Shown here: positions 17,986 through 22,079 of the stretch, piece after piece
Layout of the letters: the number at the start of each line of letters is the position of its first letter
Numbering within the stretch: the stretch's first letter is position 1
Assembly: GCA_048882045.1 (NCBI GenBank)
Contig: JBHLRZ010000045.1
Span: 1-22,388 of the forward strand
DNA: 22,388 nucleotides
DNA from: Candidatus Thorarchaeota archaeon
Lineage (GTDB): Archaea > Asgardarchaeota > Thorarchaeia > Thorarchaeales > Thorarchaeaceae
Direction of reading: 5' to 3'
Made by a program: the position numbers and the translations under genes
Notes under the pieces: generated by a model
Seen by the model: the letters and a program-made list of their open reading frames with translations, nothing else
Told to the model about the DNA's origin: nothing
Databases searched by the model: none

Positions 17986-20900
17986 ATGAAAAAGGGAAAA
18001 AGCGAGAATCTTTCAGAGAGGAAAGACGTTGGGGAGATGGATTACGATTGGGTAGAAATAATCAAGCTTCACAAACAGGAGGCAGAGTCCAATCTGGAAA
18101 TGAAAAATATGGAAGAATCTGCTGTTGCATACAAGAAGCTTGGATATGCTTGTGCTCAGTTTGCAGAAACGGTTGATACTGCAGATGAAAATGTAGGCCA
18201 TACCAAAAATGCTGTTGATGCTTTCAGAAAAGCTGCGACACTCTATAAACAGACAGGCAAGAAGCCGGAGGAATTTGAATGCATTGGAGAAGCCTTCTTT
18301 TTCAATGGGTTAATAGCTGGGTCCAATATGGAAGGAAAGAAGGCGTTTAGCAAATCTTATGAGCAATTCATTAAATCAAGCGACCTCTTTACCAAGGAGA
18401 ATGATCAAGAGGGTCGAGCGCGGACTCTGAGTCGTGCTGCGTTGGCGTCATTCTATCTAGTTACTCAATATAGTGACAAACTAGAGATTGAACAGCTTAT
18501 TCAAGAAGGTATAACCATTGCAGGAGAATCTTGGAAACTTTCAAACAATGTTGGAAATGTTCAATCTCTTGCTGAATCATTATACGCTGAATTTTGGCTA
18601 TGTTGGGCGCATATGCTTGTTGCACCTTATAGATGGGATGAGAATTGGAAGGAATACAACAGGAAAATTCTATTGAGGTGTGATGAAAGTATAAAAGCTA
18701 CTGAGGATTGCGACAATCCTCTATTCATTAGTATGGTTCACCTTGCAGCTGGTACCCTATACTACTTCTTTGGATTTAATTTCATAAAGGATGAAAAAGA
18801 GCAGAGAGAATACACCGAGAAAGGATTTCAGTTAGGGGAGAAGGCTGTAGTCTTCGCAAAGAGAGCGAATAATAAAATTTTGATATTATCTTCACTATGG
18901 TGGTTGAACTGGAACGCCCTATCTACAGGAAGACACGAGTACCTCCAGAAACAAATATTCGAAGACATCTGGATTATGGAAGAGATTGGAAGAATATATG
19001 CAAACTCAAACAGCTTTTGGTTTCATTCCGGAAGAGGCATGCCCGCCTTCTGCTATGCAAACTTGGCTCGAATGAGTTTTTTCACAAGTACTCAAAGGAA
19101 ATCTTTTGCCGAGAAGGCAATTGAACATATCATGGAGGGTTTGAAGAAGTTTGCCTTCAGACCAGCAATTACCTGGCAATATCAGATGTTAACATGGGCA
19201 CATTCACTGCTATCTACTCTTGCTACTACAAAAGATGAGCGGAATCAACACGCACAGAAAATGCTTCAATATGCCAGACAGGGTGAAAAAATCGGGGAAG
19301 AATACGATGGTGGATGGGCTCGAGCCGCTGGGTACTCTTCCACCTATGGAGCCTACAAGACTCTTGCAGACATGGCACAAAACGAAAAAGAAAGAATCAA
19401 GCATCTATCAGCTGCAGTAGATGCTGCTACAAAGTATAATCAACATTCAGTGGAAAGCCGCACTGGCATCGTAGCAGCCCAAGTGCGGCTAGGGCTTCTC
19501 TTCGAAGAGCTTGGTAAATTAACGACGAATGTCAAACCGCTTAGAAAGGCAAAGGAGACATTTCTTGGAGTAATCAAGGAGAGTCGTGAGAGGAGATATC
19601 ATTTCTATGAAGCTGCTGGTCACGAATATACTGCACATATCGAAGATCGACTTGGCAACCATATTGCTTCAGCTGAACACTACGAAAAAGCTCAGGAGGC
19701 CCATACTAAGTCTTTGAAAACAATTGACTTCAAACCTTTGAAAGAGAGAGTTAAGGAGAAAATAGACTACGCTCGAGCATGGAACATGATTGAGAAGGCT
19801 AAGGCCCATCACAGGATGTCAGATTACCAAAAAGCCAAGGAAGATTATGAGAAAGCTTGTGAAATTTTGAAAGAACTACCAAGCTATGATTATGAAGCAT
19901 CCTACTTCGCAGCCTGGGGTCTGCAGGAAGAAGCTGAACAACTTAGTAAACAGGAAAATCATGAGCAGGCTTTGGAGAGATATGAAGCAACTAGGAGGAG
20001 CTTCGATAGCGCGATAAAATCACTAGAAGAAACCTCCACTTCTTTGGAAAACAGATGGGAAAGAGAAAGAATCGAGAAACTCAAGAAAGTTGCTAAGGTG
20101 AGAATGAACTACTGCTCCGGTAGAGCAAATATCGAAAGAGCACGAATACTAGGAAAGCAGGGTGACCACCTAGCAGCTGCAGAGAGATTTGCCTCAGCGG
20201 CTTCTGAGTTTAGCGACGTTCTCACTCAATTCAAAATCAAAGCGGAACGTAAGGAATTAGAAGCTGTATACAACCTCTGCAGAGCCTGGGAGAGCATGGA
20301 GCTTGCAGAGAACTATGATGACGCAGACAAATTCGCAGAAGCAGCAAGCCTATTCACCAAAGCCAGTAAGCTGTTCACTGATACCAAGCTGAAACTGCTA
20401 GCTACAGGCAACTCAGCCTTTTGTAAGGCTTTAGAACACGGGTGCAAATTTGATGAGTCAACTGAAACCGATGTCAAAGCACTACTTTATCCAAAGATCA
20501 AGACGATACTTAGAAAGGCAGCATCTGCCTATCGGAAAGGGGGTCACGATGGCGGAGCTGATTGGGCTCTGGCAACATCTAGCTATTTCGATGCGACATG
20601 GCACTTTATCAAAGCGGATGAGGAGCTGGATATTGACGAAAGGAAGAAATTCCTAAGAATCGCGACTAAATATCTGAAGTCAGCGGCTGAACTCTTCAGT
20701 AAATCGGGTTACAAGCACAAAGAGAGAGAGATTTTAGGTCGCCTAGAAATGGTAGAGAAGGAAGAGAGTATTCTAGTCTCCGCATTAGACATAATAATAG
20801 AACCATCTATCTCTAGAAGCACAGTAGGTATTGTCGCCCCTTCTTGTCCAACAGAAACCAGTCTCCCTCCAAGAATAGGTGAAGTTCGTCAGTTCACCGA

Positions 20901-21810
20901 AAGTGCAACAATGGTCAGAGATGAAGCCAGTCAGAGAAAATACGAACTCATCTACAAGAACCTACTCAAAGAACACTCAAACGTCCAGAGAACTGAGTAC
21001 AGAGTTGGCATCGCCCAGATAGGAGTTTCCAACACAAGCGACATTCTAAACGAATTCTATGAGATGAAGGCAGATGGCTTTCTAGGTCTTAGGCATGATA
21101 AAGTAGATGCAGTAAGATCCAAAGTCAAGAGCATGATAGAATTCGCTCAAAGAGAAGGAGTCAATATCCTACTCTTCCCGGAAATGACCATCGACCTCAA
21201 CTACAAGGAATTGCTTGAAGAAATAACTCATCAGGCTGAGATTTACGGAATGTACATAATACCAGGTTCGTACCATGATGATAATACAAAACAGAACCTC
21301 TGTGTGGTCGTAGGACCAGACGGAATCCTTTGGAATCAGGAGAAGCACATTCCAGCTACCATTCACTATAAAGGTGAAAGGTTCACTGAGAAAATAGGAA
21401 TTGGAGCACTCCCAAGGAGAACGTTCATTTGTGATACAGAGTTTGGGAGAATAGCAATTGTCATATGTCGAGACTTTCTGGACATGGACCTAAGGGTGGA
21501 GTTAAAGAACTTTGAACCTCCAGTGGATATAGTTTTCAACCCAGCATTCACACCAGTCACAGCAGACTTCAAAGCAGCACATTTTGATGCCCGTAGGTCT
21601 ATCTACGCCTATTGCTTCTTCGCCAATGTCGCTGAATTTGGAGATTCTCTCATTTACACACCTGAGAAAGAACGTGTCGAAAGGAGTCTGCCATCAAAGG
21701 AAGAGGGTCTAATCTACAAGGATGTACACCTTTTCCAACTTCGTTCAGAGCGTAGAAAATGGGAAAAGCAGCAGGAAAATCAAAGGTCGTTTATACAAAG
21801 CACAAGATGA
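17986..21810 (+). CDS. Large TPR/SNAP-like helical-repeat protein with C-terminal carbon-nitrogen hydrolase (nitrilase-family) domain
   Basis: About 950 aa of Ala-rich helical repeats (AAEHYEKA-, AKEDYEKA-, AAERFASA-type). C-terminal RVGIAQ...LLFPEM...IIPGS...QEKH...ICRDF...ANVAEFGDS with E-K-C triad. GGAGG SD at 17978. Confidence 0.88.
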   Translation: MKKGKSENLSERKDVGEMDYDWVEIIKLHKQEAESNLEMKNMEESAVAYKKLGYACAQFAETVDTADENVGHTKNAVDAFRKAATLYKQTGKKPEEFECIGEAFFFNGLIAGSNMEGKKAFSKSYEQFIKSSDLFTKENDQEGRARTLSRAALASFYLVTQYSDKLEIEQLIQEGITIAGESWKLSNNVGNVQSLAESLYAEFWLCWAHMLVAPYRWDENWKEYNRKILLRCDESIKATEDCDNPLFISMVHLAAGTLYYFFGFNFIKDEKEQREYTEKGFQLGEKAVVFAKRANNKILILSSLWWLNWNALSTGRHEYLQKQIFEDIWIMEEIGRIYANSNSFWFHSGRGMPAFCYANLARMSFFTSTQRKSFAEKAIEHIMEGLKKFAFRPAITWQYQMLTWAHSLLSTLATTKDERNQHAQKMLQYARQGEKIGEEYDGGWARAAGYSSTYGAYKTLADMAQNEKERIKHLSAAVDAATKYNQHSVESRTGIVAAQVRLGLLFEELGKLTTNVKPLRKAKETFLGVIKESRERRYHFYEAAGHEYTAHIEDRLGNHIASAEHYEKAQEAHTKSLKTIDFKPLKERVKEKIDYARAWNMIEKAKAHHRMSDYQKAKEDYEKACEILKELPSYDYEASYFAAWGLQEEAEQLSKQENHEQALERYEATRRSFDSAIKSLEETSTSLENRWERERIEKLKKVAKVRMNYCSGRANIERARILGKQGDHLAAAERFASAASEFSDVLTQFKIKAERKELEAVYNLCRAWESMELAENYDDADKFAEAASLFTKASKLFTDTKLKLLATGNSAFCKALEHGCKFDESTETDVKALLYPKIKTILRKAASAYRKGGHDGGADWALATSSYFDATWHFIKADEELDIDERKKFLRIATKYLKSAAELFSKSGYKHKEREILGRLEMVEKEESILVSALDIIIEPSISRSTVGIVAPSCPTETSLPPRIGEVRQFTESATMVRDEASQRKYELIYKNLLKEHSNVQRTEYRVGIAQIGVSNTSDILNEFYEMKADGFLGLRHDKVDAVRSKVKSMIEFAQREGVNILLFPEMTIDLNYKELLEEITHQAEIYGMYIIPGSYHDDNTKQNLCVVVGPDGILWNQEKHIPATIHYKGERFTEKIGIGALPRRTFICDTEFGRIAIVICRDFLDMDLRVELKNFEPPVDIVFNPAFTPVTADFKAAHFDARRSIYAYCFFANVAEFGDSLIYTPEKERVERSLPSKEEGLIYKDVHLFQLRSERRKWEKQQENQRSFIQSTR

Positions 21811-21840: not shown

Positions 21841-21857
21841 ATACAACTTTTAGGAGA
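21841..21857 (+). promoter_or_regulatory. Putative promoter of sRNA 1
   Basis: ATACAACTTTTAGGAGA. TTTTA begins 29 nt before the predicted sRNA 5' end; identical 17-mer precedes sRNA 2. Confidence 0.6.
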
Positions 21858-21876: not shown

Positions 21877-21952
21877 GTGGCATTTCTGTGAGGCGGTTAC
21901 CCCTGGCTGAGCTTCGGCGATGACGAGCCAAGAGCAAGCTGAGATCTGCCAC
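21877..21952 (+). ncRNA. Box C/D 2'-O-methylation guide sRNA (copy 1)
   Basis: Terminal stem GTGGCA/TGCCAC; box C GTGAGGC (21888); 12-nt guide GGTTACCCCTGG; D' CTGA (21907); GC-TTCG-GC hairpin; C' ATGACGA (21920); 12-nt guide GCCAAGAGCAAG; D CTGA (21939); T-rich tract after. Confidence 0.85.
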
Positions 21953-21968
21953 TCTTTCTTCTCAATCA

Positions 21969-21985
21969 ATACAACTTTTAGGAGA
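21969..21985 (+). promoter_or_regulatory. Putative promoter of sRNA 2
   Basis: ATACAACTTTTAGGAGA, identical to 21841-21857. TTTTA begins 28 nt before the predicted 5' end. Confidence 0.6.
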
Positions 21986-22003
21986 CACAGGAGATATTTT
22001 CCT

Positions 22004-22079
22004 GTGGCTAATCTGTGAAGCAGTTACCCCTGACTGAGCTCAAGCAATGAAGACACGGTGAGCAGCTGAGATTTGCCAC
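22004..22079 (+). ncRNA. Box C/D 2'-O-methylation guide sRNA (copy 2)
   Basis: Terminal stem GTGGCTAATC/GATTTGCCAC; box C GTGAAGC (22015); 12-nt guide AGTTACCCCTGA; D' CTGA (22034); GC-TCAA-GC hairpin; C' ATGAAGA (22047); 12-nt guide CACGGTGAGCAG; D CTGA (22066); T-tract after. Confidence 0.85.

Follow-up and report, generated by a model that had tools for sequence, protein, structure and literature searches.

The two short units that follow one another in tandem near the end of a contig from a Candidatus Thorarchaeota archaeon raise the question of which RNA their common guide addresses and whether eukaryotes share the same guide/target pair. The window, that is, the whole stretch of DNA analyzed here, comprises the 22,388 nucleotides of contig C45 and belongs to a 3.63-Mb genome of 44% GC in 93 contigs. 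An initial annotation of this DNA had proposed that a guide present in both copies targets the peptidyl-transferase center (PTC) of the large-subunit rRNA in the register of eukaryotic snR38/SNORD1; the span that it gave, 21895-22037, runs from the D' guide of copy 1 through the D' box of copy 2. By reading the sequence between 21500 and 22388, we found two tandem archaeal box C/D sRNA units on the + strand (Table 1). Both sit in the gap after an unrelated open reading frame of 1274 amino acids (17986-21810) that has a CN-hydrolase domain at its C terminus.

Table 1. Positions of the two sRNA units, their boxes and guides, and the upstream motifs in the window.
Feature	Position	Strand	Remark
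Promoter-like motif ACAACTTTTAGGAG (TATA-like TTTTA)	21843..21856	+	~27 nt upstream of copy 1 sRNA
Box C/D sRNA copy 1, 76 nt	21877..21952	+	5' stem GTGGCA, 3' stem TGCCAC (terminal stem GUGGCA/UGCCAC)
C box GTGAGGC, copy 1	21888..21894	+	family consensus RTGANGC
D' guide GGTTACCCCTGG, copy 1	21895..21906	+	N+5 base C at 21902, predicted to pair with 23S G2446
D' box CTGA, copy 1	21907..21910	+	from sequence
Loop GCTTCGGCG, copy 1	between D' box and C' box	+	from sequence
C' box ATGACGA, copy 1	21920..21926	+	from sequence
D guide GCCAAGAGCAAG, copy 1	21927..21938	+	predicted N+5 target 23S C2510
D box CTGA, copy 1	21939..21942	+	from sequence
Promoter-like motif ACAACTTTTAGGAG, second instance	21971..21984	+	ahead of copy 2, again ~27 nt upstream
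Box C/D sRNA copy 2, 76 nt	22004..22079	+	stem GUGGC/GCCAC
C box GTGAAGC, copy 2	22015..22021	+	from sequence
D' guide AGTTACCCCTGA, copy 2	22022..22033	+	N+5 base C at 22029, predicted to pair with 23S G2446
D' box CTGA, copy 2	22034..22037	+	from sequence
C' box ATGAAGA, copy 2	22047..22053	+	from sequence
D guide CACGGTGAGCAG, copy 2	22054..22065	+	predicted N+5 target 23S U2555, A loop (helix 92)
D box CTGA, copy 2	22066..22069	+	from sequence

The boxes follow the canonical order C, D', C', D in both copies, and all four guide spacers are exactly 12 nt long, where the archaeal criterion is 10 to 12 nt. The C boxes keep RUGA-N-G and depart from the RUGAUGA consensus at positions 5 and 7, a feature found family-wide, and the D' box also occurs as CCGA or CGGA in relatives. 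In agreement with the initial annotation to the base, GTTACCCCTG lies exactly one nucleotide ahead of the D' CTGA in copies 1 and 2. The motif ACAACTTTTAGGAG was conserved upstream of all six aligned sRNA genes from three genomes and, judged by its position, is a candidate promoter. With a stem that we specified, the terminal helix was 83.5% paired across 35 members (slid controls, 25 to 48%), and in four of the pairs both sides had changed; the terminal stem was not recovered by RNAalifold on the family alignment. A search of the window with Rfam at gathering thresholds gave no match, and a relaxed scan returned only sub-threshold C/D matches.

The genome encodes the three proteins expected of a host of archaeal C/D sRNAs. 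The fibrillarin gene (C2:103611-104276, 294 bits) adjoins that of Nop5 (C2:104402-105079) in one operon, and two L7Ae-family genes are located on C11. Two metatranscriptome runs contained one short contig each over the sRNA of relatives; these contigs reach into DNA-like flanks, and their ends and strand are unreadable.

The sRNAs are widespread among the close relatives of this organism. A BLAST search found the copy 1 family in 27 of the 28 genomes of the genus, and near-identical sRNA genes are present in Candidatus Thorarchaeota archaeon records, including SMTZ1-45, AB_25, and OWC2. The exact pattern was detected in 48 of the 85 genomes of the Thor family and in 54 of 400 Asgard genomes, while the reversed-pattern control gave 0 in both sets; the shared guide exceeds chance. 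Among 35 distinct members, the decamer formed by positions 2-11 of the D' guide was invariant in 33, and the other two carried a single U/C change, unlike the loop, the stem, and the flanking guide bases, all of which vary. Both units are real, well-conserved, and previously unannotated box C/D sRNAs.

We searched for 16S and 23S rRNA in the organism's own 93-contig genome and found none assembled; pairing of the guides was therefore measured on congeneric rRNA. The reference was the full-length 23S of the congener G001; that of a second congener, G010, is in agreement with it as far as an intron. We derived the E. coli numbering by aligning the G001 23S to rrlH. At the PTC, this 23S reads ACUUACC-CCAGGGGUAACA-GAGUUGUC, in which CCAGGGGUAACA corresponds to E. 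coli 2442-2453 (C2442, C2443, A2444, G2445, G2446, G2447, G2448, U2449, A2450, A2451, C2452, and A2453). We found that the D' guide of copy 1, GGTTACCCCTGG, forms 11 contiguous Watson-Crick pairs with 2442-2452, and that of copy 2, AGTTACCCCTGA, forms 10 such pairs with 2443-2452 through guide positions 2-11. In both copies, the fifth guide base upstream of the D' box (N+5) lies opposite G2446. The G at position 2448, which the initial annotation had named as needed for the pairing of copy 2, is present in this same-genus 23S.

The complementarity was assessed by shuffling the guides and scoring the same Watson-Crick run through N+5 in the 23S and in two 16S sequences. For the D' guide of copy 1, 2 of 1000 shuffles were as good, and for that of copy 2, 23 of 1000. 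The G2446 site also gave the best duplex in 23S plus 16S, with -21.6 kcal/mol for copy 1 and -19.6 kcal/mol for copy 2, as compared to -17.7 and -15.9 kcal/mol, respectively, for the next-best duplexes. In the 17 tRNAs of the genome recovered by aragorn, we found nothing above 8 bp. Thus, the proposed PTC target, G2446 in the snR38/SNORD1 register with a complementarity of at least 10 bp, held against congeneric 23S and 16S and the recovered tRNAs, among which there was no better partner.

The same guide might instead address the 16S rRNA. Around position 258 of the congeneric molecule (congener's own numbering) lies a GUGGGGUAACU stretch, with which copy 2 can form nine contiguous pairs through guide positions 4-12 when matched to one congener's 16S (-15.9 kcal/mol). 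A related core, GTTATCCCCG, fits the 16S sequence (A)CGGGGAUAAC(C) as well as 23S in other archaea, and Dennis et al. mark two sRNAs, sR101 and sR414, on both rRNAs. However, the 23S duplex is longer and stronger than the 16S duplex and takes in positions 2-3 beside the box. These two positions (TG) are invariant though unpaired on 16S, while position 12, which is required for 16S, varies freely. Moreover, the Thor guide departs from GTTATCCCCG at exactly two bases, those where the Thor 23S differs (A2444 and G2448). Because the Thor D' guide follows these lineage-specific rRNA substitutions, it is unambiguous for 23S, and we consider a 16S target very improbable. In a covariation test, the guide of a sister genus (G341) kept U opposite G2448, forming a G-U wobble with no compensatory change, which is compatible with the A-to-G change in the rRNA having come first and the change in the guide later.

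Helix 69 of the 23S, a known hotspot of archaeal methylation (PMC4644070), had also been put forward in the initial annotation, as an alternative target paired with no irregularity other than G-U wobble. In the congeneric 23S, this helix (CGCCGGGACUAACUAUGAG, with the segment CCGGGACUAACU) leaves two central mismatches plus a wobble against the guide and falls outside the top duplexes. The alternative thus fails, and we give it virtually no weight.

The D guide of copy 1, GCCAAGAGCAAG, is complementary to UCGGCUCUUGGU of the congeneric 23S through eight Watson-Crick pairs, flanked by G-U pairs at both ends; it pairs with G2509-G2516 (GCUCUUGG) and places N+5 on C2510, 64 nt 3' of the site of the D' guide. 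This duplex is not significant alone, as 239 of 1000 shuffles were as good. The assignment to C2510 is supported by four observations: it is the best duplex for this guide; guide positions 4-11 (CCAAGAGC), which are nearly invariant among the 35 distinct members while positions 1-3 vary, coincide with the paired span; the Thor-family 23S carries GG at 2513-2514 (CUCUUGGUAUCC), as compared to CC in other archaea, and CCAAGAGC matches the GG; and the same pair of D' and D targets recurs elsewhere. A match of this guide to tRNA-Ile was rejected, as it needs guide positions 2-3, which are variable in the family. The D guide of copy 2, CACGGTGAGCAG, forms nine contiguous Watson-Crick pairs with GUGCUCACCGAU, which corresponds to U2552-G2560 of the A loop and places U2555 at N+5; 41 of 1000 shuffles gave as good a run, and this is the best duplex of the guide, at -17.3 kcal/mol. 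Against a threshold of at least 9 to 10 bp with a Watson-Crick pair at N+5, the guides thus show sufficient complementarity, with the D guide of copy 1 falling at 8 bp plus G-U. The best duplexes of all four guides lie within ~110 nt of domain V.

We consider it highly probable that the locus contains two independently promoted box C/D sRNA genes whose shared D' guide directs 2'-O-methylation of G2446. Each RNA would fold as a C/D kink-turn with a terminal stem of 5 to 6 bp and an internal C'/D' motif, and would be bound by L7Ae, Nop5, and fibrillarin, presenting two guides of 12 nt. The shared D' guide would pair with C2443-C2452 in the central loop of the PTC, so that the fifth guide base upstream of the D' box faces G2446, which fibrillarin would methylate. 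The D guide of copy 1 would direct the enzyme to C2510, 64 nt downstream, and that of copy 2 to U2555 in the A loop. In this way, each sRNA would clamp two nearby strands of domain V, leading to their methylation and possibly helping them to fold. The proposal rests on the gene anatomy, the conservation, the complementarity to congeneric rRNA, the register, and the presence of the protein genes; from these, we infer transcription, RNP assembly, and methylation. It predicts that the organism's own 23S contains CCAGGGGUAAC.

In the PTC region, the two guide sites are separated by 64 nt for copy 1 and by 109 nt for copy 2, a spacing that would also suit RNAs that act chiefly as folding chaperones of domain V, holding 2443-2452 together with 2509-2516 or with the A-loop strand during assembly, so that methylation would be absent or secondary. 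Such a role has been proposed for closely spaced double guides by Dennis et al. (2015) and Lui et al. (2018). In every family member, however, the N+5 pair is a Watson-Crick C-G, which is a requirement of methylation, and the two roles are not mutually exclusive. We regard a function chiefly in folding as unlikely and guide-directed methylation of G2446 as the preferred reading.

Copy 2 is a chimera, in which the G2446 D' guide is combined with a D guide from another sRNA family. The D guide of copy 2, (A/C)ACGGTGAGCAG, is found in other congeners at other loci, beside unrelated D' guides. In one of them (G012), a D guide of this type is located in the adjacent gene together with the D' guide GCAACCTTTGA, while three genomes (G000, G004, and G030) and a few more Thor genomes join it to the G2446 guide. 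This corresponds to the modular shuffling of guides known from Pyrobaculum and others (PMC6009581, PMC4644070).

The G2446 guide extends well beyond Thorarchaeota. When one genome of each prokaryotic species was scanned with TGANGNNGTTAYCCCYGNCTGA, more than 118 loci were obtained, and 70 of the 80 titled matches were archaeal. They included Thorarchaeota and other Asgard archaea, Nano- and Woesearchaeota, Methanothermococcus, and Methanosarcinales, as well as Pyrodictiaceae/Desulfurococcales, Marsarchaeota, Thaumarchaeota, and Hydrothermarchaeota; the C'/D half was absent from every bacterial match among those listed. In two of these groups, the guide could be compared with 23S from the same genome: the Methanothermococcus 23S, CCGGGGAUAACA, fits the guide TGTTATCCCCGG, and the thaumarchaeal 23S, CCAGGGAUAACA, fits the guide AGTTATCCCTGG. 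The core GTTATCCCCG common in archaea fits 16S too, and part of the phylum spread may therefore consist of 16S guides; the flanking guide bases divide the matches of the scan into 23S-like and 16S-like types.

Several published archaeal sRNAs resemble those described here. The closest in its targets is the double-guide sRNA sR7 of Methanopyrus kandleri (MKAsR7; Dennis et al. 2015, PMC4644070, Additional file 1). When we parsed the sequence as published, N+5 fell on G2446 for the D' guide, GGTAATCCCCGG-CCGA, and on C2510 for the D guide, CGGAGAGCCGG-CGGA, an arrangement of D' and D identical to that of copy 1. In contrast to copy 1, sR7 has guide letters that track the Methanopyrus rRNA (A2448, G2444, and CUCUCCCC), a weaker D' duplex, and more degenerate boxes, and it lacks a tandem second copy. 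The D' guide of sR101 from Methanococcus maripaludis (MmasR101), TGTTATCCCCGG-CTGA, matches its own 23S CCGGGGAUAACA at 12 of 12 positions with N+5 on G2446, as in the present case, and sR414 of Ignicoccus hospitalis (IHOsR414) carries AGTTATCCCCGG as a D guide, as compared to the D' guide in Thor. Both differ from the Thor sRNAs in their partner guides, and their core also fits the 16S sequence GGGGAUAAC. The published prediction for them is accordingly ambiguous, with both placed on both rRNAs (PMC4644070), while the Thor guide is 23S-specific. Two further sRNAs of Dennis et al., NeqsR03 and TtesR140, were rejected as G2446 guides, as they misfit the PTC of their own 23S, and NeqsR03 fits 16S. 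Thus, the G2446 guide is neither Asgard-specific nor new to archaeal data, and published sets held comparable guides that went unremarked.

The pairing of G2446 with C2510 in one sRNA was found in Thorarchaeota, in an unclassified archaeon, in Methanopyrus sR7, and probably in a second Asgard family (f15). In the latter, the D guide fits C2510 with a mismatch at position 4, as judged from one full 23S from the same genome, and the assignment is tentative. The recurrence of this pair in distant archaea is the best hint of the antiquity of the double guide.

We compared the two copies with their proposed eukaryotic counterpart. The Rfam family snoR38 (RF00213) matched only copy 2, with 21 bits and E = 1.2, as compared to a gathering threshold of 45. 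In this alignment, the consensus CAGUUAUCCCUGUCUGA (...ACAGUUAUCCCUGUCUGA...) is superposed on copy 2 D' box on D' box, and the register is therefore that of snR38/SNORD1, with a score below the threshold; 15 of the 17 bases of guide plus D' box match. Like both copies, snR38, SNORD1, and plant snoR38Y target the nucleotide G2446 through a guide located upstream of D'. Their sites are Gm2812/2815 in yeast, Gm4362/4392 in human, and Gm2805/2816 in Arabidopsis (PMC3511168, PMC11542601), and the snR38 family has been dated to the last common ancestor of eukaryotes (LECA) (PMC3511168). Unlike the archaeal copies, eukaryotic snoR38 is a longer RNA with a spacer of ~18 nt after box C and one functional guide, and, opposite 2448, its guide has U (for A) where the Thor copies have C (for G).

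The D guide of copy 1 has a eukaryotic parallel as well. U49/SNORD49 (RF00277; plant RF00337) directs a Cm located 64 nt 3' of the snR38 site, since the U49 sites, Cm2869 in A. thaliana and Cm4426 in human, lie at +64 nt from Gm2805 and Gm4362, respectively (PMC3511168). By this position arithmetic, the U49 site is C2510. The yeast 25S sequence presumably agrees with this equivalence. In eukaryotes, U49 is a separate snoRNA, in contrast to the double guide of copy 1, and the U49 families of Rfam gave no match in the window at E up to 10.

These comparisons bear on the suggestion of the initial annotation that the locus represents a guide/target pair conserved between archaea and eukaryotes. 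The equivalence of the site stands; the pair, however, also occurs outside Asgard archaea and was already contained in archaeal data. Because the target dictates the guide sequence, the likeness to snR38 does not demonstrate homology, and because only a target-dictated guide and generic boxes align, there are no independent homologous characters. It is somewhat more probable that the guides converged, that is, that a near-universal PTC strand dictated the G2446 guide and that the Thor and eukaryotic guides arose independently or as modules re-created or shuffled across scaffolds. This would be consistent with the placement of the G2446 guide, which is found at D' in Thor, Methanococcales, and DPANN but at D in Crenarchaeota and Thaumarchaeota and has different partners, and with the module swapping that copy 2 shows inside the genus. 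The exact pattern is likewise patchy across Asgard archaea: apart from the 48 of 85 genomes of the Thor family, it was found in 4 of 22 genomes of one other family and once in Baldrarchaeum, and in 0 of the remaining Asgard families searched, including 0 of 135 genomes in the largest. Baldrarchaeum belongs to the same phylum as the genome of the window. Furthermore, nothing beyond guide and boxes resembles Rfam snoR38, and Hoeppner and Poole concluded likewise for other matches between archaeal and eukaryotic sites (PMC3511168). The convergence of the guides is, however, harder to reconcile with the recurrence of G2446 and C2510 in one sRNA from Thorarchaeota to Methanopyrus, both sites being methylated in eukaryotes. 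Shared ancestry would explain this more economically than chance, and functional constraint is a further possibility.

In its strongest form, shared ancestry would mean that the G2446 and C2510 double guide descends from one sRNA older than the archaeal-eukaryotic split, and that snR38/SNORD1 and U49/SNORD49 are its two halves, parted when eukaryotic snoRNAs became single-guide. We consider this scenario quite unlikely, and independent origin or re-creation of the guides remains our favored account of the likeness to eukaryotes.

For only a few ribose-methylation sites in rRNA is it known that archaea and eukaryotes share both the site and its guide. In their 2012 study, Hoeppner and Poole identified essentially a single convincing case and none for snR38 (PMC3511168), and a cross-kingdom table from 2024 lists no archaeal (P. 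abyssi) equivalent of Gm2815. According to our predictions, one strongly conserved archaeal guide RNA would target both G2446, the site of snR38, and C2510, that of U49, and Asgard archaea would join the lineages with guides aimed at the catalytic core. The picture of how C/D RNPs function is unchanged. Should the common origin of the double guide prove true, two LECA snoRNAs would for the first time have an archaeal orthologue, and the splitting of double guides could be modeled concretely. The locus also offers a clean test case of whether methylation of the PTC is ancestral to archaea and eukaryotes.

Upstream of both tandem box C/D sRNA copies, by about 27 nt in each case, we found the same 14-nt motif (ACAACTTTTAGGAG), which also precedes sRNA genes in relatives. 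This motif is likely to be a BRE/TATA promoter common to this group of sRNA genes. An ORF upstream of copy 1 encodes a 1274-aa protein of unusual domain architecture, with a carbon-nitrogen hydrolase domain at its C terminus (PF00795, 32.6 bits) and weak TPR and MIT-like matches in the middle region.

Features in the window and insertions in 23S
Feature	Location	Strand	Size	Remark
ORF	window 17986-21810	+	1274 aa	stops 67 nt before copy 1
Motif ACAACTTTTAGGAG	window 21843-21856 and 21971-21984		14 nt	identical at both places
23S insertion, congener G010	L006:4072-4865		~784 nt	ORF inside
23S insertion, Asgard genome G016	L005:4036-4390		~345 nt	

Guides of the G2446 type were also detected in Crenarchaeota (Pyrodictiaceae/Desulfurococcales), where they occupy the D position and recur with a D' partner of the form NTCGAGGTANNC. 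This arrangement is seen at nine loci (L047, L059, L077, L095, L110, L118, L130, L134, and L151), and the 23S strand UACCUCGA, at about 2493-2501 in E. coli numbering, is complementary to the D' partner. Thus, the crenarchaeal guide pair is another predicted two-strand clamp on the PTC loop. Among euryarchaeal sRNAs whose guide is 16S-like (GGTTATCCCCGT), many have a second guide, NGGGAGTAACTG, in common, as found at loci L096, L119, L127, L142, and L153 (Methanosarcinales and others).

The 23S of the congener G001 (L004, E. coli-equivalent numbering) revealed Thor-family deviations from the usual archaeal PTC sequence, namely A2444, G2448 (GGGGUAAC), and GG for CC at 2513-2514, all of which fall at otherwise highly conserved positions. 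G2448 is shared with the 23S of N. equitans and with that of several other Asgard archaea.

Within the target strand of the D' guide common to both copies, the 23S of G010 and G016 carry an extra segment immediately 3' of GGGGUAA (A2451). The insertion in G010 contains an ORF of the LAGLIDADG type, which is 233 aa long and matches Pfam PF14528 (E = 1e-8). On an intron-containing pre-rRNA, the D' guide would be able to pair no further than A2451, which raises the question of the order in which splicing and methylation would take place.
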